Assembly: GCF_002854065.1 (NCBI RefSeq)
Contig: NZ_CP024152.1
Length of the DNA stretch: 64,000 nucleotides
Origin: Escherichia coli
GTDB lineage: Bacteria; Pseudomonadota; Gammaproteobacteria; Enterobacterales; Enterobacteriaceae
Direction: 5' to 3' (one strand)
How positions within the stretch are numbered: the stretch's first letter is position 1; each line of letters begins with the position of its first letter. The position numbers and the translations under genes were made by a program. The notes under the pieces were generated by a model. The model saw only the letters and a program-made list of their open reading frames with translations, had not been told where the DNA came from and did no database searches. Positions 34,229-54,116 of the stretch are shown one piece after another.

Positions 34229-34261
34229 GGCCGCGCCGGATTCTGGCGCGGCCTTTTTTTT
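34229..34261 (+). terminator. Rho-independent terminator between convergent trbC and nikB
   Basis: GGCCGCGCC...GGCGCGGCC stem followed by T8. Confidence 0.6.
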
Positions 34262-36959
34262 AACCTGGAGAAGGCGGTTCCCAGCGTTTATCCTGCTCCG
34301 GCGGAGGCAGTGATGCGTCATCGTTGCTGTTCGCCGCGATATAATCGCGGTAGTAGCGTTCACTTCCTTCACGGTGATGATCCACGTCCGGTCGCGTAAT
34401 CCTGTAGTCTTCGTGACCGGTACGGCCTGTCACATTATGCCAGGCAACCATTTCAGCAAAGACCTGGTTAAATTGTTTGTCGTTTCCTTCTGGTTCAAAA
34501 CCCATGCGTGGATCACGCCCGAATAATACCGGTGCAATCAAATCCAGTTTATCTGCCAGCGCATTGCGGTCATGGTGATTACGGAAAACAACCCTGTCAC
34601 CATAATCCGTACAGACAAACTCTCCCGTCCGACGGTCACGGAAACGAACACTCCCGTTCTTCTGCAGACGGGCCTCGAGATCACCGGTATTACCGTATAC
34701 CGGCGTTCCGCCCGGTTCACAAAGCACGACACAGCGGTCTGTCGTCGTTGTGCGTGACCTGTCTTTACGGCGATCGCGATAATCCCAGCCTCTCAACTGC
34801 GATACAGCAGCCCTGTCTCCCTGAGCAGCCTGAATTTCGACCCACTGACGGTAAGAGGGTGGATACCACTTCCCGTCAGCAATAAGTTTCTGTCGCTCAT
34901 CCCTGATGTCTTCTTTCAGCCTGATCAATGCCTGCATTCGCTGAACTTCTGCAATGTGATAATGCAGCTTACGTAATGCCGGATCATCGTACTGCGCACG
35001 AATGTGTGACTTCCGCAGACGGCATGCCTGATGAATTTCCCGACAACGTTCCCCATAACGCAGATCTGGTTTACGCCATTGTTCACGCCATGCCAGATAG
35101 CGGGCACGCAGGTCAGCACGGGCCTCAGCTCTGGCTTCACGTCGCTGCCGGCGCAGCATTGGGTCACGTTTACTGCTGACCCCGTACCTGTCACTGACAG
35201 CCAGCTCCGGGTTATAGCGACTTTCAGGTTGCACCCTGTCAAACAAATCTGCTGGGGCACTCACAAAAGGTCCGGCCTGTGGCTCTGCACGCCCCAGTGT
35301 CAGATCAGGATGAATGCTGCTGGCCTTCACCGGCGTTTGCTCATGATTAAAGGCATCAACGACAACAAGCCCGTGATGTTGTTTCTGTAGCATCAGTCCC
35401 TGTTGTGCAAACAGCTCATGACAACGCTGCCAGGTAAACTCACCCTGTGTGATCATTTCTTCAATCTGAGGGCTACAATGGCTGATGCTGTATCCCCACA
35501 GACTTTCTTTGTCAGAAAACAGTTCGCGTTTGATAGCCCCCTGCGGCCCCGTGCCTGTACGCATACGGTGCCATTCTTTATCGGTCGCAGGACAGCTCTC
35601 CATACGACGACCACGGAAGCGTTCTGTTGGCGTAACCTGGCGGAAAATATCTGTTGGTACAGGCTGCCAGCCACCATCGAGTTGATTCACATTGTCGAGC
35701 GTCAGCAGCGACCATACGCTGTCAGCACGAACGGGAGTCTGGTTATGATCATAACCGTCACAGATAACCAGGTGACCATGCTGAACACGCATCCATAATC
35801 CCGCTTCAGCCAGTGTGCGGTGAATAGCCTGGCAGTTTTCCAGCCGTCCTTCCCGTGCCATTTCCGGCAGACGTTCTCCAAGGTGACGACAGGCATACTG
35901 CTGCAGACTTTCTGTTTCAGCGATTTTTTCCGGGCGAACATCAGCGGCAATGAAGTCCGGATTATAGCGTCCTGGTGCTTCCACCTGGCTGAAAATGTCT
36001 TTTGGTACTGGCGTGTAGTCACCCATTTTTTTCATGAGTTTTTCTGCACACCAGGAGGGACCAAACGAGTCAAGCTGTACACCTTCCCTGTTGCGATCCC
36101 AGCCATCCATCACCAGAAATTTTCCTTCCATCTGAGACAGGTACAGACCATCTTCCGCAAGACGACGATGCAGGGATAACCAGTCATTTACAGGTTCACT
36201 GCGTAAACCAGCGACCGCTGTCTGCGCGACATACTCGCGAAAAGTTTGTTTTTTTCCGCGTGTCCACGCGTTCTGGCGATCACGTTCAACGGCAGTTTTG
36301 CGAACGATACGATTTCCCGGCGCATGGACCCAGCAACCGTTATCCGGAGCAAAACCATGCTTCAGTTCAAGTTCACGGCAGGCACGGCTGAGTTTTTCCT
36401 GACTCCATGAAAGGCAATTCAGATAACCTGTAACCGGATGTACCCGGTTGACCGCAACGTGAACATGCAGGTTATCAGTATCGGTATGTACGGCAGAAAC
36501 ATACTGATGTTCACCCAGCCCGAGGGATTTCAGGGTATGGCGTACACTGTCATAAATCTGTTCCGGACGCGGGCTTTCATGGGCCTGCCAGGAAAGAATG
36601 TAGTGAAAAACAGGATCAGTATTATCTTTCGCATAGTGTGCCTGCTGTGCAATGTACTCCATATCTGCAGCAGCAGTTTCAAGCGATGTACAGTTGTGAA
36701 AACAGGTCACACCGTAAAAGTTAACCCATTCGCAGCCGTCCTTCATGACATCAACCAGCGCCACGAATGACTCATTTCGAAGGCGTGTCGCATAATCAAC
36801 AAGGCGACTGAAACGGCTCCGGTGCGGTTGTTCAGCCTGCGAAGAAGAAGATAAATTCAGTTCCTCATCGGTCATGTCATCCCGGACCGAGACGTAGGAC
36901 ACCAGGTCTTCGAACGAAGACTTGCCGTCCCTTCTCTTTTTCGGAATGACTGCATTCAC
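34260..36959 (-). CDS. nikB: NikB relaxase (899 aa)
   Basis: Relaxase His-triad motif HTDTDNLHVHVAVN; large ORF adjacent to nikA and oriT; GTG start with GAGGA RBS. Confidence 0.85.
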   Translation of the reverse strand: MNAVIPKKRRDGKSSFEDLVSYVSVRDDMTDEELNLSSSSQAEQPHRSRFSRLVDYATRLRNESFVALVDVMKDGCEWVNFYGVTCFHNCTSLETAAADMEYIAQQAHYAKDNTDPVFHYILSWQAHESPRPEQIYDSVRHTLKSLGLGEHQYVSAVHTDTDNLHVHVAVNRVHPVTGYLNCLSWSQEKLSRACRELELKHGFAPDNGCWVHAPGNRIVRKTAVERDRQNAWTRGKKQTFREYVAQTAVAGLRSEPVNDWLSLHRRLAEDGLYLSQMEGKFLVMDGWDRNREGVQLDSFGPSWCAEKLMKKMGDYTPVPKDIFSQVEAPGRYNPDFIAADVRPEKIAETESLQQYACRHLGERLPEMAREGRLENCQAIHRTLAEAGLWMRVQHGHLVICDGYDHNQTPVRADSVWSLLTLDNVNQLDGGWQPVPTDIFRQVTPTERFRGRRMESCPATDKEWHRMRTGTGPQGAIKRELFSDKESLWGYSISHCSPQIEEMITQGEFTWQRCHELFAQQGLMLQKQHHGLVVVDAFNHEQTPVKASSIHPDLTLGRAEPQAGPFVSAPADLFDRVQPESRYNPELAVSDRYGVSSKRDPMLRRQRREARAEARADLRARYLAWREQWRKPDLRYGERCREIHQACRLRKSHIRAQYDDPALRKLHYHIAEVQRMQALIRLKEDIRDERQKLIADGKWYPPSYRQWVEIQAAQGDRAAVSQLRGWDYRDRRKDRSRTTTTDRCVVLCEPGGTPVYGNTGDLEARLQKNGSVRFRDRRTGEFVCTDYGDRVVFRNHHDRNALADKLDLIAPVLFGRDPRMGFEPEGNDKQFNQVFAEMVAWHNVTGRTGHEDYRITRPDVDHHREGSERYYRDYIAANSNDDASLPPPEQDKRWEPPSPG

Positions 36960-36969
36960 CGGAGAATCC

Positions 36970-37302
36970 TCAACCTTCCATTAACTGTTTACGCAATGTA
37001 TTTGTAAGTTCGGTTATGGCAACAAGCACTTCTGCGTATTCCTTGTCACCGGTTCTTTTTCCCTGAACAAACAGATGCTTCTGCATCCTTCCCAGTCTCA
37101 TTAACTCCTTCAGAAAAGCATCATCTGTACGGGAGTTAATTCGCTTATTCAGTGCTGCATTTCGGATGTAAGCAGATACAGTAAGTCCGGAATCTTCAGC
37201 TTTTTTCCTGATGGTTTCATCCTCAACAGGAGAGAATCTGAGTGTCCTGACAACTGTCTTTTGCCGTACCTCACTTTTCTTTCTTACCGCACTATCACTC
37301 AC
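36970..37302 (-). CDS. nikA: NikA, oriT-binding relaxosome accessory protein (110 aa)
   Basis: Small basic ORF immediately upstream of nikB and next to the oriT inverted repeats. Confidence 0.8.
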   Translation of the reverse strand: MSDSAVRKKSEVRQKTVVRTLRFSPVEDETIRKKAEDSGLTVSAYIRNAALNKRINSRTDDAFLKELMRLGRMQKHLFVQGKRTGDKEYAEVLVAITELTNTLRKQLMEG

Positions 37303-37420
37303 TTCAGGCTCCTTACGGGGTGTCGGGGCGAAGCCCTGACCAGATGGTAATTGTAATAGCGTCGCGTGTGACGGTATTACAATTACACATCCTGTCCCGT
37401 TTTTCAGGCCATTATAGCCT
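37303..37420. other. Origin of transfer (oriT) region with inverted repeats
   Basis: Inverted repeat GTCGGGGC...GCCCTGAC (37331-37349) and AATTGTAATA-N16-TATTACAATT (37358-37393), directly upstream of nikA; a nick site is expected at the 3-prime side of the right arm. Confidence 0.6.
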
Positions 37421-37956: not shown

Positions 37957-38808
37957 TCAGACTCGTGGCGGCAATGCACCAGGATAATGCCGTGCAATAA
38001 TATCATTCAGTTTTTCAACAAGGTCAGGACGCTTAAAGACAATGTGTACGGTCCCTTTCTGGTAGCCACGCACCGTAAAATATTCCCCTTCTAACAGCTT
38101 ACCGACGTTGTCGCCGTTCCCGAGAAATTCACCATACTGCGCCCCGATGCTGCTCCGGAAGTCAGGAACGTTGCGCCCCTCCAGCAGATAAAAAGGACGT
38201 ACCAGGTCATCCAGTGCCTCCCGTCCGCTGCAGTCCAGCGTCACACGCCCGTTACTCCAGCGGTACAGCATGTTTTCAATAATGATTCTCTTGCCCAGAC
38301 GGCAGGGATTATTGGTTCTGTAATCCCATGACAATTTCCGGTAGACATCAATCAGTCCCTGTTCAAACGTCTGCATCTTGCTGGTATTAAGATGGCGGAA
38401 TGTTGCCAGTACATTGTCCAGGGTGATTTCAGGACAGGTGTCGCTCATCAGCTGGCTGTTCCACTCATCACGCTGGCATGAACTCATGAAGGTGTACATG
38501 CCCGTATCTGTCATCAGGCGGTCCCAGATTTTCCGGTCGGCAAGACGGGTGATATTCCTTTTCGCTTCTTCCGGCTTATCCATGCGACGAACGGAATCAG
38601 TCACGCAGTCTTCAAACCCGTAAAGAAAAATATCACCTGACGCATCGAGCAGAATCCTGCGCGCTGTCGCCAGGCATTCCATCGCCTGCATGAATAGTGC
38701 AATACCTTCGTTACGCTGCGCGATGATGCGGTCGATAGCCACAGACGGAATAACATCTGTCGTGCCGGCAGTATTCAGGTCAGCAGTGGGTAAAGTCTGA
38801 TTCATCAC
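37957..38808 (-). CDS. Hypothetical leading-region protein (283 aa)
   Basis: Minus-strand ORF directly downstream (in transcription sense) of structured repeat copy 1; function not recognisable from sequence. Confidence 0.5.
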   Translation of the reverse strand: MMNQTLPTADLNTAGTTDVIPSVAIDRIIAQRNEGIALFMQAMECLATARRILLDASGDIFLYGFEDCVTDSVRRMDKPEEAKRNITRLADRKIWDRLMTDTGMYTFMSSCQRDEWNSQLMSDTCPEITLDNVLATFRHLNTSKMQTFEQGLIDVYRKLSWDYRTNNPCRLGKRIIIENMLYRWSNGRVTLDCSGREALDDLVRPFYLLEGRNVPDFRSSIGAQYGEFLGNGDNVGKLLEGEYFTVRGYQKGTVHIVFKRPDLVEKLNDIIARHYPGALPPRV

Positions 38809-38853
38809 ATTGTCTCCTCATCGTCACGACTGCCGGGTCAGCCAGGTCATTTC

Positions 38854-39180
38854 CCGGAGGAGCGAAGCTCCTTCTGCCGTCCGGGTCTTAGGGTATTTCC
38901 CCGCAGTGGACCTTTCCGACGGGGGACGCTCACCACGTCACGGGGCAGTTGTCCGGGGGCAGACGCAAAAGTTTTTGACGCCAGCGGCAAAAAGTTTTGT
39001 GGCTGGTACATCTCTCCCCTGGACGACTGAAACGGGATGTGGTCGTGTATGTACCCCCGGAAAGTCCGTCTGCGGAGAACAGGCCGCAGTGCGGCGGCAG
39101 ACAGGCAAGAGACAGCTGCGCCATCAGGCGCAGTGGCCTTACACACCGTAAGGTGTGCAGGGAGCGCCGCATCCGGCGCG
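38854..39180. promoter_or_regulatory. Structured repeat family 1, copy 1 (ssi/Frpo-like single-strand promoter candidate)
   Basis: About 330 bp, highly similar to 41711-42207 and 48054-48551; contains internal palindromes (GCGCCATCAGGCGC, ACACACCGT-AGGTGTG). Confidence 0.55.
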
Positions 39181-39281
39181 TCTGAAGAAAAACGACGGCA
39201 CAACAATGGCATGTGGTGGTCACTGGCACACCACTCCCGCACAGGTGAAAACAGAGAAAACCGCACGACATTTACAAACAA

Positions 39282-39378
39282 AAAAAGTGAAATTTCTTCA
39301 CTTTTTTACACTTATTTATCGCGCTGATTTGGCAATTGTGATGATAAAATAAAGTGAAGTTTTTTCACTTTTTCAAAG
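39282..39378. promoter_or_regulatory. Two palindromic operator-like sites flanking the putative promoter of the HTH gene
   Basis: AAAAAGTGAA-ATTTC-TTCACTTTTT (39282-39307) and AAAGTGAA-GTTTTT-TCACTTT (about 39350-39375), sharing the half-site AGTGAA. Confidence 0.45.
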
Positions 39379-39385
39379 GTGTTTT

Positions 39386-39637
39386 ATGACCGGCTGGGAA
39401 CTGCGAATCTGGCGAAAAAGCATGCTATGGTCACGCGAAAAAGCGGCCAGAGAATTTGGCGTGACGCAGAGAACATGGCACGCCTGGGAAAATGCGGAAC
39501 AGGTGGACGTCACCGTCTGGAGGACCACTCAGGCACTTTCAGTCCGTGACCTGCTGCCTCACATGCAGGGGATGCGCAAGGCAGATATCATCAGGCGTCT
39601 GGAAAATGAACTGGGGGAAACGGCAGGGAATGTGTGA
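39386..39637 (+). CDS. Helix-turn-helix (XRE-like) DNA-binding protein (83 aa)
   Basis: HTH signature SREKAAREFGVTQRTWHAWE; AGGTG RBS; palindromic sites upstream. Confidence 0.55.
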   Translation: MTGWELRIWRKSMLWSREKAAREFGVTQRTWHAWENAEQVDVTVWRTTQALSVRDLLPHMQGMRKADIIRRLENELGETAGNV

Positions 39638-39667
39638 GCGTGATTCACAGCCTGGCAGAATGTCAGG

Positions 39668-39838
39668 CTACTGCTCATCAGGAAACAGCTTTTTCAGTTC
39701 TTCACCGGAAAGTCCGGTCGCCTCCTGAATCCGTTCCGGCGTCCAGCCCATATCCCGCAGCCGGCAGGCTATTTCCCGCGCCACTTCAAGAGCACCTTTT
39801 TCAAAACCTTTCTGTATAAGACGTTCTGCAATCGTCAT
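39668..39838 (-). CDS. Standalone small protein homologous to the Rpn C-terminal tail (56 aa; RpnS-like)
   Basis: MTIAERLIQKGFEKGALEVAREIACRLRDMGWTPERIQEATGLSGEELKKLF aligns residue by residue with the last 57 aa of the upstream Rpn protein; separated from rpn by an intrinsic terminator. Confidence 0.5.
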   Translation of the reverse strand: MTIAERLIQKGFEKGALEVAREIACRLRDMGWTPERIQEATGLSGEELKKLFPDEQ

Positions 39839-39862
39839 GCTGTTTGCTCTGCTCCTGCTGAC

Positions 39863-39887
39863 AAAAAAGCCCGGCATTTTGCCGGGC
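39863..39887 (-). terminator. Rho-independent terminator after the rpn-like gene
   Basis: On the minus strand, GCCCGGC-AAAAT-GCCGGGC hairpin followed by T6. Confidence 0.55.
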
Positions 39888-39900
39888 TGTGAGGTTCTCA

Positions 39901-40860
39901 TCAGTGAATGATTTTCTTCAGTTCGTCATCGGAAAGTCCGGTAGCCTGCTTAATCTGCTCCGGCGTCATCCCCATTTTCTGAAGCTGGCACGCAATAGCC
40001 AGGGCTTTTTCAAGCGCACCTTCCATCCTGCCCTCCTGGCGACCTTTTTGCTCAAGACGTTCTGCGATAGTCATCAGTTTATCCTCATGCTGCGGCAGAC
40101 GCTCAGCCAGCGCCCGCATAAATTCCGGTGATACAGAGTCCCCTGCGTTAACGATGTAATGAATCAGAACACGCACCTGCTCGTCTGAAATTTCCACCAT
40201 GACCTGCGGGAGTTTGTCCAGCAGCTCCATCATGTCACGATGGCGGATATGCTTCATCAGCAGCGTCAGTGCGGCCATCCGGCGATGGTTCATGATTTCA
40301 TTGTCATCAACGACAGTGATATCAACCAGCGGAAACGGCTTTGTGTATATTTTAGCCGCAAGTGCCGGATTCTCAAAACAGTCCAGCCAGTTCATGCTGT
40401 ACGGGTACGGGCTGCGCTCACCATGATAGAACAGCACAGGAATCACCAGTGGCAACGTTTTGTGCTGCTCCAGATGTCTCTGCATCGCCGCCACACTGTA
40501 ACGTAACATGCGGAAAGGCATGTACAGATTTTCGGTGCTCTGGTGCTCGATGAGCGTATAAACATAGCCGTCTTCACCCCCGGTGGTTTTCACACTCCAG
40601 AGGATATCGCTGGCGTACTGATGCAGGTCCGGCTCAACAAAGGTGGCGGGTTCCAGCTTCAGCGTGGACAGGTCGCACAACTGCCGGTACTCCGCCGGAA
40701 GATGCAGTTCCAGAAAATCTCTGGCGACGTCGGGATTCGCCAGGAACGACCGGAACGCGGCATCATGCGGCGTGGGCGTCGTGGTGGTTTTCTTCTTACT
40801 CACGGTTCCTCCTGGTGAGATGTCTGAACGTATCCTGCCGCCTGCACAGGCAGACGGCAA
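39901..40860 (-). CDS. Rpn-family (YhgA-like, PD-(D/E)xK) recombination-promoting nuclease (319 aa)
   Basis: Rpn/YhgA-type N-terminal nuclease-domain signature and the characteristic C-terminal tail; internal in-frame ATG at 40074 with a GAGGA SD could produce the C-terminal small protein. Confidence 0.6.
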   Translation of the reverse strand: MPSACAGGRIRSDISPGGTVSKKKTTTTPTPHDAAFRSFLANPDVARDFLELHLPAEYRQLCDLSTLKLEPATFVEPDLHQYASDILWSVKTTGGEDGYVYTLIEHQSTENLYMPFRMLRYSVAAMQRHLEQHKTLPLVIPVLFYHGERSPYPYSMNWLDCFENPALAAKIYTKPFPLVDITVVDDNEIMNHRRMAALTLLMKHIRHRDMMELLDKLPQVMVEISDEQVRVLIHYIVNAGDSVSPEFMRALAERLPQHEDKLMTIAERLEQKGRQEGRMEGALEKALAIACQLQKMGMTPEQIKQATGLSDDELKKIIH

Positions 40861-40867
40861 GGGTTAA

Positions 40868-41134
40868 TCAGTGGCAGACCCGCTCAATTTCAAGCGCGCG
40901 GAGCAGGTGGCCCCATTCGCTGACTTTCATAGCGGGGATACGCACCCGCTTCTGCTCACTGCAGCGTCTGGCGATATGGCCGCTCATCGCCAGGACGTCC
41001 GGGTTAATCTCATCCTGTGCCAGCTCCTGACGTCTGAAGCGGGTATGGCGGTGCAGGGGTTTATTCTCCCGCAGGCACTCTTCACGCAGACGCTTTACAT
41101 ACTCGGCGGTTGCGAAGATAATTGATGGTCTCAC
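40868..41134 (-). CDS. Hypothetical leading-region protein (88 aa)
   Basis: ORF downstream of structured repeat copy 2. Confidence 0.4.
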   Translation of the reverse strand: MRPSIIFATAEYVKRLREECLRENKPLHRHTRFRRQELAQDEINPDVLAMSGHIARRCSEQKRVRIPAMKVSEWGHLLRALEIERVCH

Positions 41135-41225
41135 AAATATTTCTCCTTATGTTGTTGATGACTGCCGCTCTTCCTGGCGGGGAAGTAACGGCGGAGAGAG
41201 GCAGGGTTTATCGCCCTGCCTTTTT

Positions 41226-41660
41226 TCATTTCGGACAGCGACGCAGTGCCAGCGCGAGCGCTTTCATCTTCCAGCCTTCCGGCGTGCGGTACATCACCTT
41301 CCAGTAGCCGTCGATGAACACATAATGGAAGCGCACCTCTTCAGTGCTTTCAGTGGCAATAGCCTCCATGAAAGAACGGTACTCACGCGCCTCACTGTCC
41401 ATCCGGAAACCACTGTCACGTCCGTAATAAGCCGTCACACCGTCCACCGGGTTCTGAAGCGTATGCCCGGCGGGTTTGTCGCAACGGGGACCGAGGCAAC
41501 GGATATCACCGTGTTCAACCAGGGCTTCGGCCTGCTGACCGGTGGCATAGTGGGTATGCAGGATGCGACCGTTCCAGGTCGGCTCACCGTGCAGGTGGCA
41601 GTAAACGGTACGGAACACCCCGTCGCGGCAAAAAACGGAAATCGTGCTGCTGACTGTCAT
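41226..41660 (-). CDS. Hypothetical leading-region protein (144 aa)
   Basis: First ORF downstream of structured repeat copy 2; Cys/His-containing N-terminus. Confidence 0.45.
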   Translation of the reverse strand: MTVSSTISVFCRDGVFRTVYCHLHGEPTWNGRILHTHYATGQQAEALVEHGDIRCLGPRCDKPAGHTLQNPVDGVTAYYGRDSGFRMDSEAREYRSFMEAIATESTEEVRFHYVFIDGYWKVMYRTPEGWKMKALALALRRCPK

Positions 41661-41710
41661 GAAAACGTCTCCTTCTGCTGAATCAGGTCGCCGGGCCGAC
41701 CGGTTGCTCC

Positions 41711-42207
41711 CCGGAGGGGCGAAAGCCCCTTCTGCCGTCCACTTCTTCGGGGTTTCTCCCCGCAGTGGACCTTTCCGATGGGGCGTCCGTCACCACGTCA
41801 CGGGGCAGCTGTCCGGGGGCGGACGCAAAATTTTTTGCCGGGTTTATGGCTAAAAATTTTGTGGACGGTATATCTTCCCCTGGACTGCTGAAACGGGATG
41901 TGGTTACTCCAGCCCCCGGAAAGTCCACAGCGGGAAACAGGCCGCAGGGGTGGCGGCGGAAGGGTTGACTGCGCCATCAGGCGCAGTGGCCTTACACACC
42001 GTCAGGTGTGCAGGGAGCGCCGTTTCCGGCGCGACAGGGGCGGCGCGACCGGAACGGTCGCTGCAAGCCTGGTTTTTCAGACATCGGACCGTAGCGGCAG
42101 CCCGAAACCGCGCCAGCGGGTTCGGCGGAGACTGGCGGGTGCGCCAGCAGCTGCCTGTCGGAGTCGGGCCTGACGACCGGATGCCGCCAGGCAGCCGGGA
42201 GCCGAAG
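41711..42207. promoter_or_regulatory. Structured repeat family 1, copy 2 (ssi/Frpo-like)
   Basis: About 500 bp, near-identical over most of its length to 48054-48551 and over about 330 bp to 38854-39180. Confidence 0.6.
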
Positions 42208-42388
42208 GTGTCCCCGCCTCCGGAAATCAGAACAACAGAAACGACATAACAGAAAAATGCCTCACACCATGACGGGCAGGAAGGGCAGCGCCGCAGGCGC
42301 GGCCCTCCTGCATTTCAGGCAGGCGTAAGCCTGCCAGGGTTTTCCGGCGGCCTGGCAGGCCATACCCCCGCCGGAGCGGGGGAGTAAA

Positions 42389-42889
42389 TCACCGACGGAA
42401 CACATGACCGTCAATAAAGGTGAAGGAGTCCAGGAATAAATCCCGCGCATACGCCTCATAGTCAAAATAGAGCGCCACCGTCTCCGGCACGTCAGCCAGC
42501 AGGCCGGTATCACTGGCGAACTCAACCGCAAAAGCCTCCTCACTGTCAGCCTCGCCCCACCAGGCATCGCGGAAGGTGTCAAAATCCGTCTCACCGGTAT
42601 CCTCCACCCAGAGACGATAAGCCTCTTCGCAGCCTTCATCCCGTGCCTGGCGGAAGCCTTCAACCCAGGCCCAGTTGATATGGCATTCAGAGGCCATATT
42701 CCCCGGGAATCCCTCATAATCCTGAAACATCAGTTCAGGATCGGCTTCATCCTGGTGAAGAGCACGGCAGGCGGCGAAAAAGTCGCGCTCATCATCAAAC
42801 GTGGTCAGGTCAAACCAGCGTCCGGCGATGCTTCCACAGTTGTATTTGTGCCAGGTTCCAACGTATACAGCAGGTGCAACAACAGACAT
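42389..42889 (-). CDS. ardA: Antirestriction protein ArdA (166 aa)
   Basis: Starts [27 protein letters not shown] and has the acidic DNA-mimic composition; GGAGGA RBS. The ORF-track 301-aa reading is an upstream extension through the repeat. Confidence 0.85.
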
Positions 42890-42921
42890 TCCCGAATCCT
42901 CCATAGTCACATGTTCTGCGG

Positions 42922-43248
42922 CACCGGGCGGTGCCGTGCCTCCATAAAAGCCGGGCGATAAGGCGGGGATGCATAGGGCGCAAGGGAAGCCGCAGCCTGA
43001 CGCACACGGCTGGCGGGAGTTGGAGGGTGAGACCGCGAAATCTGAGCGGGTGAACGACCGGAAAATCACGGCAGACGGGAAGGAGGGACCGGGTGACCGC
43101 AGCGGCGAAGCGTACCCTTGCATCCCTGCCAGCCCGGCTAAGATGGAGGCACGGCACAGCCCGCACACGACGCTGAGGCCACAGAGCTGAAAACCCACAA
43201 GGCCATGCCCCGCATGGCCGGGTAAAAGCGGAGCCGCCGGCGACTTCC
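42922..43248. promoter_or_regulatory. Structured repeat family 2, copy A (ssDNA promoter candidate upstream of ardA)
   Basis: Perfect 15-bp inverted repeat GTGCCGTGCCTCCAT (42931-42945) / ATGGAGGCACGGCAC (43143-43157) about 200 bp apart, plus further paired arms; second copy at 49870-50192. Confidence 0.55.
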
Positions 43249-43351
43249 TTATTCCGGCGAGTGCAGAGGACACGCCGCATGACCTCCAGACCACCCCTGA
43301 TATGAAACGATCATGATCGGCGTGTCCCTGCGTAAAATATACATGTCTGGT

Positions 43352-43948
43352 TCACCGGAGAATATCTGTGATATCCACAAGTTTTCTGTCGCACAGCCAG
43401 TCCTGCGCTTCACGCACCACGCTACTGTCGGGTTTCACCGCTTTCAGCGATGATGCCAGTCGCTTGATCAACATAACCAGTTCCCGTGTCTGTATGTCCG
43501 GCATTGTCTCCGGCGGAGCAGAGGGACTCTCATTTCCGACGCCCATCCCATGCGCTTCCAGTGTGGCACGGACAAACCAGGCGGCATCGACCAGTTGCTG
43601 GCGAATCCAGGTCAGATCGGCATTTCTGTCACGGGCTGCCATTCGCTCACCCGACAGCGCCTTGCTGATATGGCTGCGCACCAGATTATCCAGGAGTTCC
43701 TGCGCTTCTTCCGGTGAAAAGCCACCTGGTATCTCTGTGCGCAACAGTCCTTTCCTGTACAGTAGCTGCAGCAGATCAATCTGCGACCGCACTGCAACTA
43801 TCAGTACATAACGGACAATATTCGCACTGGCGGTGGTTTCTGTATCATTCAGCAGTTCCTCCGGATCATTACCACCGGTATTGCAGAGCAACGGCAACAG
43901 AGGTCGCATCCACACGGGAACCTGATATTGTTCGTCTGATTTCATCAT
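43352..43948 (-). CDS. Hypothetical protein (198 aa), coupled to psiA
   Basis: ATGA overlap with the psiA stop at 43945-43948. Confidence 0.45.
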   Translation of the reverse strand: MMKSDEQYQVPVWMRPLLPLLCNTGGNDPEELLNDTETTASANIVRYVLIVAVRSQIDLLQLLYRKGLLRTEIPGGFSPEEAQELLDNLVRSHISKALSGERMAARDRNADLTWIRQQLVDAAWFVRATLEAHGMGVGNESPSAPPETMPDIQTRELVMLIKRLASSLKAVKPDSSVVREAQDWLCDRKLVDITDILR

Positions 43949-44664
43949 ATTGCGTTCTCCAGCTTGTTCGGGATCATCCACTGCTCAAGTGCACGTACCT
44001 GTACCGGTGCACCACGACCGGCCTCACCGGCTTCAAAAATCAGCCGCCAGAGTGGTTCCTCCTGCCAGAAAAACCGGTCAAATGATGACAGTGATGGAAA
44101 ACGCCCGCACCACCCCCAGAAAATCGTTTCCAGATCATGCTCCTCAACAACACCAGACCAGCGGGACAACCAGCTTCCGACCGTGGCGGGAGTATGAAAC
44201 GCAAGGTCAATCTGCGCCTGAGCAAAACATGTCTGGTATTCCAGTTCCCGTCGTTCTGCCTCACGTTCCCGCTGGCGGCTGTATTTCTGCTCTGTCAGCG
44301 TGGTTTTCTGACGACGACGCTCACCTTCACGAAAAGGCACGGACGGGAACAGACGGTGCCCCGCATCGGATGGCAGGGGAAGAACACAGACTTCCCCAAA
44401 ACTTTCAATCAGTTTATCCACGGCAGCCAGCCACAGGAGACGGTTGCCATGAAATTCCTCCTTCGTCAGCGCAGGGGCAAAAAAGCGGAGATCGGTCAGC
44501 GAAATCCGGCGACTGCCATTCAGGCAGCGAAAGAAAGCGGTGGCATAAGGCCATGCTGGAAGTGTGCGTCCCTGACGACGACGTTGTTCTGTGACAGCCA
44601 CCGCCTGCATGGCGGCCTGTTGTTCTGCGCTGAGGGGGATCAGTGCCCGTGAACGTGCGCTCAT
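43945..44664 (-). CDS. psiA: PsiA (239 aa)
   Basis: 239-aa ORF immediately downstream of psiB, overlapping its stop; recognised PsiA sequence. Confidence 0.8.
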
Positions 44665-45098
44665 GCCTGACCTCCTTCTGCCATCAGGATATGGATGATG
44701 TCGTTAACACTGTATCCCTGCGCATCAAGTGTCGCGGCAAGCGCCAGCGTGTGACTGATCGCGACAGGCGTGAAGATATGTTGCACCTGAACGACGGCGA
44801 AAGGCTGTCCACCACCATTCACCAGAACCAGCATCCAGAGCTGAGAGACGTCTCCCGGCGAACATAATGCCAGGTGGAAACGTTCGTGGGCTGGCGTGAA
44901 ACGAACCTGGACGGGGAAAAAGCCCCCGAACTCGCTGCCATACTCTCCGTTCATCATCCAGTTAGCCGGTGCGTCCACTTCACGCATCACCTCGTGAGTG
45001 AGATTACGGCGCATATCGCTTCCCGCAGCACGGATTTCTTCATATTCCTGGGCATTCATGGACTGCAGGGCATTCAGTGTCAGTTCGGTATTCATCAT
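44661..45098 (-). CDS. psiB: PsiB, plasmid SOS inhibition protein (145 aa)
   Basis: Sequence [25 protein letters not shown]...[12 protein letters not shown] is recognisable as PsiB. Confidence 0.85.
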
Positions 45099-45149
45099 CG
45101 TATTTCTCCCTCTGCCGCCCCGTCTCCGGCGGGGCGGTGTGGTTGTTCA

Positions 45150-47114
45150 TCAGGCGGCATCAGCCAGGTTATCGGCGCGTTCAGTGGCATCCGTCTGTGG
45201 ACGTGGTGAACACATCCAGCCAGGCACCCAGCGGTTGTCTTTCATATGGAACTCTGCATGTTCAGCGGCATCGCCTTTCTTCATCTTCTCTGCGTCCCGT
45301 GCGGCACCGGACAGTCCGGCATCATTCAGGGCTGCGATAATCTGCGGCTTTTTCAGGTGTCCGAAGAAGTTTGCTTTCGTCGGCTGCCACCAGTCGCGCA
45401 TGTGAAAACCGATGGCGCTCTCCAGTGAGTCAAGCGGACTGCGTGACGTGCGACCACACTCGCGGGTCTGGACACCGTTAAGGCTGCATGCGGTGCAGAA
45501 ACTGAGCAGGGATAACAGCACCTCCTGACTGAGTGACAGGAACGTCGTCATGTCCCGTGACCATCCCTCCGGTAACAGGGCCGCAAGACGGGCTTTTTCT
45601 GCCATCAGCGCCAGGAATGCGGCACCTTCCTTCCCTGACGGCGCATCGCTGGTCAGCGAATAATGTTTACATTCCAGGCTGATTTGTGCTGGTTTACTGT
45701 ACGCTCCGCTGTCAAACACATTCAGGCAGAGCGTCCATGCCAACAGTGCCAGAGATTTGTCCGGTTGCTGCATCAGTGCTGCCTGGACTGCCAGCGTGCG
45801 TTCGGAAGACATTTTCGTCAGCAGTGGCAGACTGATTTCCTCCACTGACGCTTTTTCCTGCACCTGTTCCGTGCGGTCAGCGTCGTCAGCCGCATCATCC
45901 TCACTGCGTAACTGCACACCACGCTGGACACATACGTTTCCATAACGCCAGGACACCACCACTCCACCTTCGGCACGCATCTCCGGCGTCCACGCTCTGA
46001 CCTTCGCCATGCAGCGCATCAGCTTCATTTCTGCTTCCAGCAGGTCAGATTCCTCACACTGGTTTTCCAGCGCGTCGTAACGTGCCATCAGTTCGTTCAG
46101 ACGTTCTTCTTCCGCCTCGGTCAGCACCGCTTCCGGCTCCGGCAGACAGCGGTATGTTCCGGCATCCTCACGGCACTCACCGACAGGCTCCATGCGTCCG
46201 GCGCACCATTCCCAGCCTTCGGCTTCCCGAAGGAACTCTGCGACAGCCTGGAGTTTTTCCAGCAGGGCGGCATCGAGCGCCACGCAGTCCACATAGCCAC
46301 CCTCGTCGTCGCTGAACAAATCGGTGCGCAGTTCGTCTGGCGAGAAGGCATCAGCCCCCACGAAGCGGAATTTACTGTTCCCCGCCACCGCCACTTCACT
46401 TTCCGTAATCAGATTGCGGATAACCCGCACATCCGGTTTACCGCCCCATCCCGACTGACAGGCAGCTTCAAACACCTGCACCTGACGCGCGGTGTCGTTC
46501 TCCAGCGCCAGCGCCTGACAGTGTTCGGTGGTGATGCGGTCTTCTGCCAGCGCATCGAGGATGACAGGCGCAAGGTCAGCCAGTTTCAGCATTCGCTGAA
46601 CGTGGCGGGGTGAATAGCCCAGCAAATCACCGATTTGTGCAGGTGTTTTGCCTTCCTGCGCCATTGCGCGGAATCCGGCAATCTGTTCAGCAGGGTGCAT
46701 ATCCCGACGATGACCGTTTTCAGTCATTGATGCCGCCGTCGCCAGCTCCTGCGGAATGACCTTCACACGGACAGGCCAGTCAGCCGGAATGATGCCACGC
46801 TCTGCCAGCATGTTGAGTGCAGCCAGTCGGCGACCACCTGCGGCGACACCGTAACGGTCACCAGGCAGGGTATGCACGACCAGATTCTGCAACAGGCCAA
46901 CGCCCTTAATGGACTCCGCCAGTTCGCTGACGGACTCCGCAGAATACGGCACCGTGCGCACATTCAGCGGTGATTTAATCAGCGAGGCCAGCGGCACGCT
47001 CACTTCCTCCGTCTGCGCCAGCAGGGCAGACAGGACAGTTTCCTGCGTTTTTGCAGATTTACGGCTTGCTTTGCGGGTGGTTTCTGGTTCACACTTCGTT
47101 ACAGGCATAATCAT
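45150..47114 (-). CDS. ParB-like nuclease-domain protein (654 aa)
   Basis: N-terminal ParB/Srx-type motifs (GLLQNLVVH, AGGRRLAAL); no adjacent ParA partner. Confidence 0.65.
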   Translation of the reverse strand: MIMPVTKCEPETTRKASRKSAKTQETVLSALLAQTEEVSVPLASLIKSPLNVRTVPYSAESVSELAESIKGVGLLQNLVVHTLPGDRYGVAAGGRRLAALNMLAERGIIPADWPVRVKVIPQELATAASMTENGHRRDMHPAEQIAGFRAMAQEGKTPAQIGDLLGYSPRHVQRMLKLADLAPVILDALAEDRITTEHCQALALENDTARQVQVFEAACQSGWGGKPDVRVIRNLITESEVAVAGNSKFRFVGADAFSPDELRTDLFSDDEGGYVDCVALDAALLEKLQAVAEFLREAEGWEWCAGRMEPVGECREDAGTYRCLPEPEAVLTEAEEERLNELMARYDALENQCEESDLLEAEMKLMRCMAKVRAWTPEMRAEGGVVVSWRYGNVCVQRGVQLRSEDDAADDADRTEQVQEKASVEEISLPLLTKMSSERTLAVQAALMQQPDKSLALLAWTLCLNVFDSGAYSKPAQISLECKHYSLTSDAPSGKEGAAFLALMAEKARLAALLPEGWSRDMTTFLSLSQEVLLSLLSFCTACSLNGVQTRECGRTSRSPLDSLESAIGFHMRDWWQPTKANFFGHLKKPQIIAALNDAGLSGAARDAEKMKKGDAAEHAEFHMKDNRWVPGWMCSPRPQTDATERADNLADAA

Positions 47115-47166
47115 CCCCTTATAATTGCTTATGTCCTGCCGGACGTTCGCGCGTCCGGCACCTCTC

Positions 47167-47400
47167 TTACTTAAGAATCCCGAAATCCCTGATGTACTGG
47201 TTCATCCAGTACCCGGCACAGTCCTCAAAATTCCAGGAGCGCCAGATCAACGTGCCATCCTGACGGACAACCAGGCGAAAATGCGTTCCCTGATCATCCT
47301 CGATAAAGACGTTCTGGTACTGTGCGGCAACGGCTTCCGCCTGTTCGCGGGTAAAGGAGCCGTCCGGCAGTCCCTGAAGTATTCTGAAATATTCGCTCAT
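47167..47400 (-). CDS. Hypothetical small protein (77 aa)
   Basis: ATG at 47400 with GGAG RBS; lies between ssb and the parB-like gene. Confidence 0.4.
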
Positions 47401-47457
47401 CCTCATATCTCCGGTGATGCCCCGCACAGGGCGGGGCGGTTGTCACAGTCAGCCCGA

Positions 47458-47985
47458 TCAGAACGGGATGTCGTCTGAAAACCCGTAATCCTCCCCCTCC
47501 GGCGGTTGCGGCTGAGGCTCTGGCTGCGCGGCCTTACGTCCACGGCCTTTCGTTTTCGCGCCACCTTTTTTCGTCGCGTCAGCACTCTGTGGCTGCCCAT
47601 TCTGCTGAGGCTTCGGTTGCGCCTGAGCGTTCTGCTGTGGTGCACGTCCCAGCATCTGCACGGTGCCCGTGGTCTTAACAAGAATTTCAGTGACGTAACG
47701 GGTGATACCGTTATCTTCCCAGCTACGGGTGCGAAGCTGACCTTCGATGTAGACCTGCGCACCCTTGCGCAGATATTCACCTGCCACTTCCGCGAGCTTG
47801 CCGAACAGCACCACGCGGTGCCATTCCGTCTGCTCCCGCATCTCCCCCGTCTGTTTGTCACGCCAGCTTTCTGATGTGGCCACCTGCAGGTTTGCCACTG
47901 CGCCCCCGTTGGGGATGTAACGGACTTCCGGATCATTGCCCAGACGCCCGACGAGGATGACCTTGTTGATACCACGTGCACTCAT
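47458..47985 (-). CDS. ssb: Plasmid single-stranded DNA-binding protein (175 aa)
   Basis: OB-fold N-terminus ([15 protein letters not shown]), Gly/Pro/Gln-rich linker and acidic C-terminal tail DDIPF. Confidence 0.9.
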
Positions 47986-48053
47986 AAGAACCTCCTGACT
48001 GAAAGATGTGAGATAAACCGGATACCGGCGACGGGACGTTCATGTGCCCCTTC

Positions 48054-48551
48054 AGAGGAGCGAAAGCTCCTCCTGCCGTCCACTTCACAGGGGTTTCTCC
48101 CCGCAGTGGACCTTTCCGATGGGGGCCCGTTTACCGCCTCACGGGACAGCTGTCCGGGGGCGGACGCAAAATTTTTAGCCGGGTTCATGGCTAAAAATTT
48201 TGTGGCCGGTGCATCTCACCCTGGACAGATGGAACGGGAGGGGGTTACGTCTGCCCCCCGGAAAGTCCACAGCGGGAAACAGGCCGCAGGGGTGGCGGCA
48301 GGAGGGAGGACTGCTGCGCCATCAGGCGCAGTTTCCTCACACACCGTCAGGTGTGCAGGGAGCGCAGGTCACGGCGCGACAGGGGCGGCGCGACCGGAAC
48401 GGTCGCTGCAAGCCGGGTTTTCACGCATCGGACCGTAGCGGCAGCCCGAAACCGCGCCAGCGGGTTCGGCGGAGACTGGCGGGTGCGCCAGCAGCTGCCT
48501 GTCGGAGTCGGGCCTGACGACCGGATGCCGCCAGGCAGCCGGGAGCCGAAG
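48054..48551. promoter_or_regulatory. Structured repeat family 1, copy 3 (ssi/Frpo-like), upstream of ssb
   Basis: About 500-bp near-duplicate of 41711-42207, positioned immediately upstream (minus sense) of ssb. Confidence 0.6.
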
Positions 48552-48753
48552 TGGGCGCAATAAAAGACAGCCAGAAACGGTGACAGTGTCACGGAATATC
48601 ACACCTGTTCCCTGCATACAGCCATACACTACCTTCTGACCGGAAAGCCGGGCCGGCAGCGCCGCAGGCGCTGCACCCCGCATTTCCGGCAGGCGTCAGC
48701 CTGCCAGGGGTTTTCGCGCGGGCTGACAGGCGGCCTCCACCGCCTGCCCTGTA

Positions 48754-48945
48754 TCACCTGTTTCTGCTGCCCTGAAGGATATAGTGACCACCGAGGAAAA
48801 CCGCCTGCTGATTCGCCACAAAATCGCAGATTTCATCAACAATCTGCGCAGTGGTGAGCGGTTTCTGCCCCATTTCACGACGCCGCGCATTAATCACGGC
48901 TTTGTAATTGCGCAGAATTTCGCGGGTTTCTGTGCTGATATTCAT
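48754..48945 (-). CDS. Hypothetical small protein (63 aa)
   Basis: ORF coupled to the upstream 140-aa gene. Confidence 0.35.
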   Translation of the reverse strand: MNISTETREILRNYKAVINARRREMGQKPLTTAQIVDEICDFVANQQAVFLGGHYILQGSRNR

Positions 48946-49364
48946 GACATGTGCTCCCCGTCCAGCGCCTGTAACACAACGTCCATTGCTTCGCGTTCTT
49001 CCCTGACGAACGCATCACCGTCGCCCCCGTTCTCACTCCCGACGGCATACAGGCGCTTCATTTCACTGCCTGCCAGCGCCAACACTTTTTCCAGCATCAC
49101 CGCCGGGACTGTCACCTGACGGCTGGCGCGCTTTTCTTCCATCAGTTCACGAACAACGTCGTGAACAACGCTGACATCCGCACCATGCTCAAAGGCATCG
49201 TCCAGCCGCTGCATGACGGTTTCCAGCTCATCGTCTGTCAGACTCCAGTCCTGGGCTATGTGACGCACATCCCCACGGGTCAGCACCACGGCAAAAACGC
49301 ATTCACTGTCCGGCACGTCTGTATCCAGCACTTCGCGGATAATTTCTTTAACAGTACAGTACAT
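48942..49364 (-). CDS. Hypothetical acidic leading-region protein (140 aa), paralog of 51063-51497
   Basis: Shares N-terminal architecture and the RQVTVPA motif with the protein at 51063-51497. Confidence 0.5.
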   Translation of the reverse strand: MYCTVKEIIREVLDTDVPDSECVFAVVLTRGDVRHIAQDWSLTDDELETVMQRLDDAFEHGADVSVVHDVVRELMEEKRASRQVTVPAVMLEKVLALAGSEMKRLYAVGSENGGDGDAFVREEREAMDVVLQALDGEHMS

Positions 49365-49410
49365 GTTCTCGTCTCCTTTACAGGGGCGGCATTGCCGCCC
49401 CGTCCGTTAA

Positions 49411-49836
49411 TCAGTCCAGAGCCGCGTAAATCGCGTTGCATTCGGGGTGAAATTCGATGTGACGCCACAACTGCGCATCGCGCATCCGGTAAAGCTGGGT
49501 CAGTCCTGCATCCCCGCTGTCGTGGTACAGCCACAACTGGCGGTTAATCACAAGGGAGGTCAGGATGATGCCTGCGGCATCAGCACTCACGGTACGGTCA
49601 AACCAGTTTGCACCGTTCACCATGTGGAAACGGTCGCCATCCGGCATCATGTAACCGCCACCGTCCGGCAGGCGGATGAAGTGCCAGAAGCCTCCCTGAT
49701 ATTCCGGCATCATTTTTTGCGCCAGCGCGTACACATACGCCTCGGCATACAGAAAATCGTTGCCAAACAGATACGGCAGAAAGGAGAGACGGTCGCACTC
49801 TTCAACATTCAGAGTGACAGGTTTCGCATATTGCAT
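49411..49836 (-). CDS. KlcA/ArdB-family antirestriction-like protein (141 aa)
   Basis: Family-typical motifs EYQGGFWHF and [10 protein letters not shown]; located directly downstream of a structured repeat, like ardA. Confidence 0.65.
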
Positions 49837-49869
49837 GATGTTTTCCTCCGTTGTTCACATATTCCGCGA

Positions 49870-50192
49870 CACCGGGCGGTGCCGTGCCTCCATAAAAGCC
49901 GGGCGAACAGGCGGGGATGCAGGGGCGCAAGGGAAGCCGCAGCCTGACGCACACGGCTGACGGGAGTTGCAGGGTGAGACCGCGAAATCTGAGCGGGTGA
50001 ACGACCGGAAAATCACGGCAGACGGGAAGGAGGGACCGGGTGACCGCCGCGTTCATTTTACCCTTGCATCCCCGCCAGCCCGGCTAAGATGGAGGCACGG
50101 CACAGCCCGCACACGACACGGCGGCCACATAACTGAAAACCCACAAGGCCATGCCCCGCATGGCCGGGTAAAGCGGAGCCGGCGGCGACTTC
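49870..50192. promoter_or_regulatory. Structured repeat family 2, copy B (ssDNA promoter candidate)
   Basis: Near-duplicate of 42922-43248 including the 15-bp inverted repeat arms. Confidence 0.55.
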
Positions 50193-50247
50193 CTTTGTGC
50201 TCTGTCCGGGACCGGCAGGAAAAAGGCGGGGATTTTCCCCGCCATCA

Positions 50248-51018: not shown

Positions 51019-51062
51019 GATTCATGGTCTCCCTGAATCGCCGCCCGGAGGCGGCGATAACA

Positions 51063-51497: not shown

Positions 51498-51508
51498 ACT
51501 CTCTCCCC

Positions 51509-54077: not shown

Positions 54078-54093
54078 CTGTATATGCATACAG
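54078..54093 (+). promoter_or_regulatory. LexA (SOS) box at the impCAB promoter
   Basis: CTGTATATGCATACAG matches CTGT-N8-ACAG exactly and sits about 24 nt upstream of the impC start. Confidence 0.75.
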
Positions 54094-54116
54094 CAACAGA
54101 AAAGGGAGATGAGAAC

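Follow-up and report, generated by a model that had tools for sequence, protein, structure and literature searches.

Three repeats matching ssi1, ssi2 and ssi3 as very probable single-stranded DNA promoters within the leading region of an IncI1-type plasmid

We analysed a stretch of 64,000 nucleotides of Escherichia coli DNA (contig NZ_CP024152.1; hereafter the window), which belongs to an IncI1-type plasmid. The plasmid record NZ_AP021916.1, typed as IncI-gamma/K1, MOBP and MPF_I, is 100% identical to it over 19 kb, and thousands of enterobacterial plasmids match the window. The first-pass annotation, made from the letters without database searches, had compared the region with F as well as with ColIb-P9; the replicon belongs to IncI1/I-gamma and not to IncF. 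All genes from 37957 to 53700 lie on the minus strand. The features that the argument needs are given below from left to right; ssi1, ssi2 and ssi3 stand for copies 1, 2 and 3 of a dispersed repeat, after the elements that they match.

34260-36959, minus strand: nikB, left of oriT, beyond nikA
36970-37302, minus strand: nikA, directly left of oriT
37347-37396, plus strand: oriT core of the R64 type, read from the sequence, adjoining nikA
37957-38805, minus strand: gene for a DUF4942 protein of 282 aa, behind ssi1 (from the annotation of the 100%-identical NZ_AP021916.1)
38855-39184, plus strand: ssi1, copy 1, very probable class 1 ssDNA promoter, 98.2% identical to ColIb-P9 Frpo1
39868-41660, minus strand: ssi2 operon (144-aa gene, 88-aa gene, Rpn-family nuclease gene, terminator-like hairpin)
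39868-39888, minus strand: terminator-like hairpin with a T-run at the end of the ssi2 operon
39901-40803, minus strand: Rpn-family nuclease gene, ssi2 operon
40868-41134, minus strand: 88-aa gene, ssi2 operon
41226-41660, minus strand: 144-aa gene, ssi2 operon
41712-42037, plus strand: ssi2, copy 2, very probable class 1 ssDNA promoter, 99.7% identical to ColIb-P9 Frpo2
42038-42207, plus strand: right-hand extension of copy 2, a GC-rich multi-hairpin module outside the published ssi element
42907-43226: class 2 ssDNA promoter hairpin with ardA behind it
43352-47985, minus strand: ssi3 operon (ssb, DUF905 gene, ParB-like gene, psiB, psiA, 198-aa gene)
43352-43948, minus strand: 198-aa gene, ssi3 operon
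43945-44664, minus strand: psiA, ssi3 operon
from 44661, minus strand: psiB, ssi3 operon
45150-47108, minus strand: gene for a ParB-like protein, ssi3 operon
between ssb and the ParB-like gene, minus strand: DUF905 gene, ssi3 operon
47458-47985, minus strand: ssb, ssi3 operon
48052-48382, plus strand: ssi3, copy 3, very probable class 1 ssDNA promoter, 99.1% identical to ColIb-P9 Frpo3
48383-48551, plus strand: right-hand extension next to copy 3, a second occurrence of the module, 98% identical to 42038-42207
49855-50172: class 2 ssDNA promoter hairpin with a klcA/ardB-type antirestriction gene, a DUF1380 gene and a 63-aa gene behind it
between the class 3 unit and the class 2 hairpin at 49855-50172: a 256-aa gene, then a terminator (50225-50243)
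about 53750-53920: class 3 ssDNA promoter hairpin with a DUF1281 gene, a hypothetical gene, a DNA methylase gene and a 73-aa gene behind it

Read from right to left, the order is class 3, class 2, extension plus ssi3, class 2 (ardA), extension plus ssi2, ssi1 and oriT.

A repeat search of the region between 36 and 52 kb and a three-way alignment recovered three dispersed direct repeats of one element where the first-pass annotation had placed them, with refined boundaries. The unit common to the three copies measures 326-331 nt (38855-39184, 41712-42037 and 48052-48382), and the matches between the cores, with E-values from 1e-53 to 1e-110, are far beyond chance. Core identity is 87-88% between copies 2 and 3 and 79-81% between copy 1 and the other two (about 80-88% overall); the description of the copies as near-identical was too strong for the core at 79-88%, and it held for the extension of copies 2 and 3 at 98%. 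This extension, about 170 nt that only copies 2 and 3 have in common (42038-42207 and 48383-48551), explains why the copies had been reported with sizes of 330 and 500 bp, and copy 1 is indeed the shorter one, being without it. Interval 41711-42207 had been taken as a single element; the published element does not include its last 170 nt, which behave as a module of their own.

Each repeat fronts a minus-strand gene block, as had been observed, and the distance from the end of the copy to the start codon is 49-66 nt: 49 nt from ssi1 to the DUF4942 gene, 66 nt from ssi3 to ssb, with the 144-aa gene behind ssi2. The N-terminal half of the DUF4942 gene product matches PHROGs families that include a DNA-methyltransferase family. 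A coding role of the repeats themselves was considered and rejected, as the open reading frames annotated inside them have no significant family support and differ from copy to copy. When the window was scanned with Rfam, the repeats gave no hit and only sok and AgrB were returned elsewhere, which is expected for a DNA element.

ColIb-P9 carries three such elements, ssi1, ssi2 and ssi3, reportedly known from work by Bates and by Nasim and their colleagues in 1999 and 2004. The same elements are listed as 'ColIb P-9 Frpo1-3' by Samuel et al. 2024 (PMC11541004), and we BLASTed the ColIb-P9 sequences of their Supplementary Table 2 against the window. Copy 1 matched AJ238399.1:1459-1787 with 98.2% identity, copy 2 matched AJ238399.1:4353-4678 with 99.7% and copy 3 matched AJ238399.1:11381-11711 with 99.1%. 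A resemblance to the known ssDNA promoters of F and ColIb-P9 had been suspected; at 98.2-99.7% identity the repeats are the ColIb-P9 elements themselves. The comparison with pESBL-EA11 (NC_018659.1) is closer still for two of the cores, with ssi2 identical at 326/326 and ssi3 at 331/331 positions. The ssi1 of the window differs from that of pESBL-EA11 at 5 positions (~98.5% identity), one of which is the last base of a TGGAC motif, C in the window and T in pESBL. F ssiD is 73-75% identical to the window elements over the apex. Judged by sequence, then, the three repeats are the published ssi1, ssi2 and ssi3 of ColIb-P9/pESBL-type IncI1 plasmids, elements that are already known both in sequence and in function, the function coming from identical or near-identical copies on other plasmids.

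Next, we examined the orientation of the repeats with respect to transfer. The first-pass annotation had put oriT to their left, and we located it at 37347-37396, where a 17-bp inverted repeat (GTAATTGTAATAGCGTC / GACGGTATTACAATTAC, complementary at 16 of 17 positions) is followed, 8 nt on, by a MOBP-type nick motif, ACATCCTG followed by T with the cut marked before the T. The layout is that of R64 and RP4, and the position of the nick in R64 was reportedly mapped by Furuya and Komano in 1991. In MOBP/R64 systems the DNA 3' of the nick is what the recipient receives first. The nick would fall on the plus strand after G37394 (about 37394/37395), and the plus strand would depart 5' to 3' rightward. 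Because ACATCCTG with its T lies on the plus strand at oriT beside nikA, the polarity rule of MOBP systems makes the plus strand the T-strand; as the leading-region genes are all encoded by the minus strand, the genes downstream of the repeats have the transferred strand as their template. The earlier proposal that the plus strand enters as ssDNA agrees with both the nick motif and the gene orientation. The ssi copies start 1.46, 4.32 and 10.66 kb to the right of the oriT/nic motif, with nikA and nikB on the opposite side. The start of copy 1 is 1,460 nt from the putative nick and at coordinate 1459 in the ColIb-P9 leading-region entry AJ238399, which ties the numbering of that entry to oriT independently.

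To characterise the secondary structure of the repeats, we folded both strands of the elements and compared them with dinucleotide shuffles. Folding of the plus strand as ssDNA, which had been proposed as a check together with the ssDNA-promoter idea, gave long hairpins with free energies of -98 to -106 kcal/mol: -98.0 kcal/mol for ssi1 (z -8.88), -102.9 for ssi2 (z -9.66) and -106.0 for ssi3 (z -9.84), with 0 of 100 shuffles equally stable. The abundance of internal palindromes noted at the outset resolves into one architecture: every core forms one imperfect hairpin of ~230 nt (84-86 pairs in copies 1 and 2), with three short GC hairpins on its 3' side. In ssi1 the main hairpin extends over 38873-39101 (86 pairs), in ssi2 over 41733-41958 (84 pairs, apex loop 41840-47) and in ssi3 over ~48069-48305. 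In ssi2 the bulge GTATATCTT sits on the right arm only (41868-76), a helix of invariant sequence pairs TGTCCGGGGG (41810-19) with CCCCTGGACT (41877-86), and a conserved 4x4 internal loop lies at ~41908-11.

The minus strand folds as well (-89.9 kcal/mol and z -7.82 for ssi2, -90.5 and z -8.27 for ssi3) because the element is an inverted repeat, and with z-scores of about -8 on that strand too, folding alone does not identify the active strand. The plus strand is nevertheless more stable by 13-15.5 kcal/mol in all three copies, since several conserved pairs are G-T there and C-A mismatches on the other strand.

We then asked whether the hairpin has been conserved as a structure. When only the window copies were compared with one another, pairing was kept in 15 of 38 changed cells, which is not above slid controls. 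We therefore aligned the upper stems of 12 elements: the three window copies, Frpo1 and Frpo2 of F, two copies from one IncFII Klebsiella plasmid, and further candidates of Samuel et al. from Serratia, an insect metagenome and Salmonella. Independent folding returned the same architecture in 12 of 12. From apex to base it consists of an apex stem, usually an AT-rich palindrome; a right-arm-only bulge of 8-10 nt with CAT[C/T]T; a GTCC.GGG / CCC.GGAC helix; a helix of ~10 bp; a conserved internal loop; and a GC helix. In the alignment 92.4% of cells pair, compared with 45-53% with slid partners, compensatory cells number 29 compared with 4-9, and the covariation score of 0.387 (0.07-0.10 in the slid controls) was reached by none of 500 shuffles. 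Compensatory changes affect 7 of the 10 pairs of the ~10-bp helix. These results show that the class 1 stem-loop is maintained by selection, with compensatory changes among the 12 relatives. The GTCC.GGG / CCC.GGAC helix shows no covariation; what has been kept is its sequence and not just its pairing, which suggests that it is read by a protein.

The covariation also bears on the idea that the repeats are inert remnants of duplication, whose main effect is to let homologous recombination rearrange the cassettes of the leading region or remove them. Venturini et al. 2013 (PMC3817090) described three Frpo-homologous repeats, R1-R3, in IncI plasmids, and in pO111-CRL115 a 9.7-kb leading region was deleted by recombination between the outer ones; the way IncI and IncF plasmids mix cores with extensions likewise shows that exchange takes place at these sites. 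Yet covariation keeps the hairpin across lineages whose stem sequences are unrelated, so recombination appears as a side effect, and the idea leaves unexplained both the fixed position and orientation of the repeats before operons and the experimental promoter data. We regard its probability as close to negligible.

Having found a conserved hairpin, we searched it for promoter boxes. A search for TTGACA/N16-18/TATAAT, covering the two strands of every copy and those of F ssiD, gave nothing usable: pairs with at least 8 of 12 matches at a spacing of 16-18 nt were absent from copies 1 and 2, and the one in copy 3 was off-register. A 9/12 match in the left arm of the older F ssiD entry, TTGAGA-17-CATACT, was discarded, as the F reference record has CATCAC there and ColIb-type elements have no equivalent. 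A consensus scan of 17 kb found no duplex sigma-70-like site on the minus strand, either within the copies or beside them, which fits a duplex that is inactive, although a scan of this kind cannot prove absence of activity.

Within the folded class 1 stem three arrangements are weak candidates for polymerase contact. In the first, copy 2 would offer TTGTGG (41859-64) and, after 16 nt, TGGACT (41881-86). All members whose apex is AT-rich retain the TTG and a spacing of 15-17 nt; the weakness of this arrangement is a '-10', TGGACT, without the essential A at position 2. In the second, TGGAC[A/T/G] would act as the -35 (4-5 of 6 matches), followed at 17-18 helical steps by TACTCC at the internal loop (41905-10), and the AT-rich apex would serve as an UP element; here the weakness is the poor -10, TACTCC. 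The third arrangement, with the right-arm bulge (TATATC/TATCTT) as a pre-melted -10, was rejected as a firm assignment, as no -35 lies 17 nt upstream and a correctly spaced A...T pair is missing from the bulge of F Frpo1. By analogy with the class 2 hairpin described next, the right arm would be the non-template strand, with transcription that would run from apex to base and out toward the gene.

The class 2 hairpin at 42907-43226 offers a contrast, as canonical boxes are reconstituted in class 2 and none were found in class 1. Its right arm carries a readable TTGCAT-N15-TAAGAT, with the -10 placed in a mismatch of 3 nt and a template arm that exceeds it by 4 nt. The class 3 hairpin carries TTGCAT-N15-TAACGT. 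The first-pass annotation had named ardA among the genes driven by the known F and ColIb-P9 promoters; in the window none of the three copies of the repeat fronts this gene, which is behind this class 2 hairpin. Class 2 has been reported as a replication roadblock (bioRxiv 10.64898/2026.01.09.698686).

The same evidence weighs on the view that the repeats are ordinary duplex regulatory regions, be it conventional promoters or 5'-UTR or terminator RNA, in which the hairpin acts in RNA or not at all. The minus-sense RNA would be highly structured too, the inverted repeat being symmetric, and one small hairpin of copy 1 is terminator-like on the minus strand (39133-39116). We consider this view extremely unlikely, given that no sigma-70-like duplex promoter was found on the coding strand at any copy, that the plus strand is consistently more stable through conserved G-T pairs, and that the expression described in the literature is transient and orientation-dependent. 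Expression reportedly depends on how the genes are oriented with respect to the strand that is transferred (Bates et al. 1999, according to PMC9849209 and PMC12672017; oriT inversion, PMC7736820) and ends on conversion to duplex (PMC9849209, PMC12672017).

The functional data come from others and agree with an activity on the entering strand. In pESBL, whose ssi2 and ssi3 are identical to those of the window and whose ssi1 has 5 differences, Wen et al. (NAR 2025; PMC12672017) found leading genes induced up to ~500-fold at 15 min of mating, with full-length operon induction by RNA-seq. Induction decayed by 60 min as duplex formed and was prolonged in a uvrD recipient, and 5' RACE gave the starts of six ssDNA promoters, three of which are ssi1-3, termed 'class 1'. 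In F, Couturier et al. 2023 (PMC9849209) showed Frpo1 and Frpo2 to be necessary in vivo for their downstream genes to be expressed early, deletion of Frpo1/2 abolishing early protein production. Samuel et al. 2024 (PMC11541004) found that an anti-CRISPR becomes effective when a Frpo is placed on the T-strand in the leading region. According to the summaries given in PMC9849209, PMC11541004 and PMC12672017, Masai & Arai 1997 observed binding of the sigma-70 holoenzyme to F Frpo and initiation on SSB-coated ssDNA in vitro.

A further reading takes the elements mainly or only as priming signals for complementary-strand DNA synthesis, the original sense of 'ssi', rather than as promoters of mRNA. 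According to PMC12672017 and PMC7736820, it was as a priming signal that F ssiD was isolated, and primer RNA synthesis in vitro was shown by Masai & Arai; Fraikin et al. (bioRxiv 10.64898/2026.01.09.698686) described early rifampicin-sensitive conversion events near the class 1 promoters of F. Priming and mRNA synthesis are compatible, however, and one transcript can serve both. The position of the copies 49-66 nt from start codons of genes that are all co-oriented, the loss of early protein on deletion of Frpo1/2 in F and the induction of full-length operons in pESBL all speak against priming as the main or sole function, which we judge very unlikely.

Our preferred reading, which we hold with high confidence, is that the repeats are class 1 (Frpo/ssi-type) ssDNA promoters of the IncI1 leading region that drive the downstream operons from the entering strand. 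What supports it here is the identity with characterised elements, the position, the strand logic, the strong and conserved fold and the lack of a detected duplex promoter; early induction and start sites were demonstrated on pESBL. Under this model NikB would nick the plus strand at oriT, and the strand would enter the recipient 5' end first, with the ssi elements following the nick at distances of about 1.5, 4.3 and 10.7 kb. Once folded on itself, each element of ~330 nt would present a ~230-nt hairpin whose stem mimics a duplex promoter for the host sigma-70 RNA polymerase, which may contact the stem at one of the positions discussed above and would transcribe the entering strand leftwards. 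By this route ssi1 would drive the DUF4942 gene, ssi2 the 144-aa, 88-aa and Rpn genes, and ssi3 the series ssb, DUF905, parB-like gene, psiB, psiA and 198-aa gene. Complementary-strand synthesis would turn the hairpin into ordinary duplex, upon which the promoter would be lost and expression would stop; the transcripts probably also prime that synthesis.

The extension module was studied separately. Searched alone, it matched at least 5,000 plasmid records, with at least 95% identity in all of those best matches. It is 100% conserved in ColIb-P9, and among the matches listed the IncF Klebsiella plasmids carry it in up to 5-6 places per record. In the IncFII Klebsiella plasmid pHA2-23-KPC it is 96% identical to that of the window and follows F-type cores, which resemble the ColIb type at ~75% over 115 nt only. 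The extension, then, combines with either ColIb-type or F-type cores and is more conserved than the cores, at 96-100% between IncI and IncFII plasmids. The F plasmid has only its first ~40 nt (GCGCGACCGGAACGGTCGCTGCAAGCC), and ssi1 has none of it. Because ssi1 works without the extension and F largely without it, the extension is dispensable for promoter activity; it is a separate module, which promoter function does not require.

The predicted fold of the module consists of several short GC hairpins and exceeds shuffles only weakly (z -2.9 as ssDNA, -2.7 as RNA). A distant variant from an insect metagenome has exchanged one whole stem and kept the hairpin, with 2 compensatory pairs in this one divergent sequence. 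When the module was examined as a terminator, no hairpin followed by a T-run was found on the minus strand, and the fold has a z of about -2.8. An annotated ORF of 104 aa (48369-48683, minus strand) overlaps the extension of copy 3. It had no NCBIfam match and one marginal PHROGs hit (E 0.003, without a matched stretch). Given the lack of a significant family match and of a counterpart at copy 2, the ORF is probably spurious. We put forward as a possible, if doubtful, interpretation that the extension is a distinct, so far undescribed functional element of leading regions, a multi-hairpin unit of ssDNA or RNA on the 3' side of the promoter hairpin on the transferred strand. If this were true, it might insulate or terminate between successive ssDNA transcription units, slow complementary-strand synthesis or provide a loading site for it, or protect the promoter hairpin from SSB.

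Promoters of this type allow SSB, SOS-inhibition and anti-restriction functions to be expressed before the plasmid is double-stranded, and such early expression helps resistance plasmids to establish themselves in new hosts. The sequence of the ssi elements and its interpretation date from 1999; a catalogue of 2024 lists them in thousands of plasmids, and in 2025 identical sequences were shown to work in vivo. The present analysis contributes the annotation of six ssDNA-promoter hairpins, a quantitative covariation test for class 1, the recognition of an invariant helix conserved as sequence, and the separation of a widespread flanking module from the promoter proper.

Finally, we compared the region with known systems. 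Class 2 (ssp2) and class 3 (ssp3) promoters share with class 1 the region, the strand logic and the principle of a long hairpin, but no sequence similarity. Compared with Frpo1 (ssiD) and Frpo2 of F, the window elements have in common the AT-rich palindromic apex, the right-arm bulge with CAT[T/C]T, the GTCC.GGG/CCC.GGAC helix in unchanged sequence and, ~30 nt lower, an internal loop; Frpo2 also precedes ssb, and the demonstrated function is the same. They differ in that identity is ~73-80% and confined to an apex region of ~80-115 nt, with unrelated sequence in the lower stem, and in that F has two copies instead of three and only the first ~40 nt of the extension module. ColIb-P9 shares the order and orientation of ssi1-3, the ssb-psiB-psiA block downstream and the distance from ssi1 to the nick (1,459 nt, compared with 1,460 nt in the window). 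Its spacing is slightly different, with 2,894 nt between ssi1 and ssi2 and 7,028 nt between ssi2 and ssi3 as against 2,857 and 6,340 nt in the window, so the cargo between the repeats differs by indels; the window plasmid is an IncI-gamma/K1 relative (NZ_AP021916.1) and not ColIb-P9. The gene set of the ssi3 operon is that of the 'ssi3 operon' of Benz & Hall 2023 (PMC10104558) and of pESBL. In pESBL-EA11 the cargo between ssi2 and ssi1 is slightly different, with an extra 129-aa ORF and another Rpn allele, and the layout of six promoters (class 3, class 2, ssi3, class 2, ssi2, ssi1) is the same as in the window.

Besides ssi1, ssi2 and ssi3, the class 1 (Frpo-type) single-stranded DNA promoters, the leading region carries a second family of repeats, with these two copies:

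42907-43226: class 2 repeat, directly upstream (minus sense) of ardA
49855-50172: class 2 repeat, directly upstream (minus sense) of a klcA/ardB-type antirestriction gene

The two copies share 93-98% identity, and candidate "Frpo" 4 of Samuel et al. (PMC11541004) matches the family at 82-85% identity. The right arm of the hairpin holds TTGCAT-N15-TAAGAT, with a mismatched −10 element. These repeats correspond to the "class 2" or ssp2 single-stranded DNA promoter, for which a replication roadblock role has been reported (bioRxiv 10.64898/2026.01.09.698686).

A third hairpin type and a conventional promoter match lie further to the right:

~53750-53920 (intergenic 53701-54117): third hairpin type, upstream of the DUF1281-methylase operon
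54047-54076, plus: sigma-70-like promoter match TTGACT-18-TAGAAT (10/12), directed rightwards into dinI-umuD-umuC

The hairpin has a fold z of −4.6 and carries TTGCAT-N15-TAACGT on its right arm. Because the matching regions of the F plasmid and pESBL are 96-98% identical to it, we assign it, presumably, to the "class 3" single-stranded DNA promoters on sequence grounds. The sigma-70-like match was among the four best conventional matches of the 17-kb region scanned. Its target genes, dinI-umuD-umuC, stand in the non-template orientation for transcription from single-stranded DNA, and therefore mark the end of the block expressed in that way.

Two minus-strand ORFs lie closer to oriT:

37957-38805, minus: DUF4942 protein gene, driven by ssi1
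39668-39901, minus: 77-aa ORF that follows the Rpn gene

The DUF4942 protein had no match in NCBIfam. Its whole length aligns with a PHROGs DNA-methyltransferase family, within the N-terminal half of that family (E 5e-20), which hints that this gene, the first into the recipient, may have an accessory role in DNA modification or anti-restriction. The 77-aa ORF matched Rpn-family profiles in its C-terminal ~55 residues only, and its DNA forms a direct repeat with the Rpn gene's 3' end (39690-39798 and 39914-40022, 76% identity) whose junction holds a terminator-like hairpin at 39868-39888. The ORF thus appears to be a partial tandem duplicate of the Rpn gene end.

On the lagging side of oriT, the excA-trbA interval yielded two Rfam matches, which are pnd/hok-type and DinQ-like type I toxin loci:

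28163-28380, minus: sok antitoxin RNA (74.9 bits)
27451-27538, plus: AgrB (55.3 bits)

The RefSeq records also place two "hypothetical protein" ORFs inside the GC-rich repeats:

48369-48683, minus: hypothetical protein
41965-42249, plus: hypothetical protein

Neither ORF gave a significant family match nor was conserved between the repeat copies, and both are probably annotation artefacts.

A comparison of F plasmid records bears on the class 1 element ssiD (Frpo1). Its sequence in GenBank D90178 reads GGGGCATACTGCC, while the F reference record (14657-15004) has GGGGCATCACTGCC at the same place, and this one-base difference produces the sole good −10-like hexamer of D90178. Box assignments based on that entry need comparison with the F reference sequence.

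Finally, ssi2 and ssi3 are flanked by an extension module, with short hairpins between it and the upstream operon:

42038-42207 and 48383-48551: GC-rich multi-hairpin module of ~170 nt
42307-42346 and 48677-48716: conserved short GC hairpin GGCAGGC-n4-GCCTGCC
42357-42374: conserved short GC hairpin CCCCCGC-n4-GCGGGGG, directly after the ardA stop

The module is absent from ssi1. Its conservation exceeds that of the promoter cores, with no fewer than 5,000 plasmid records matching it at 95% or above. In IncFII plasmids it also follows F-type cores, and in the F plasmid it is cut down to ~40 nt.
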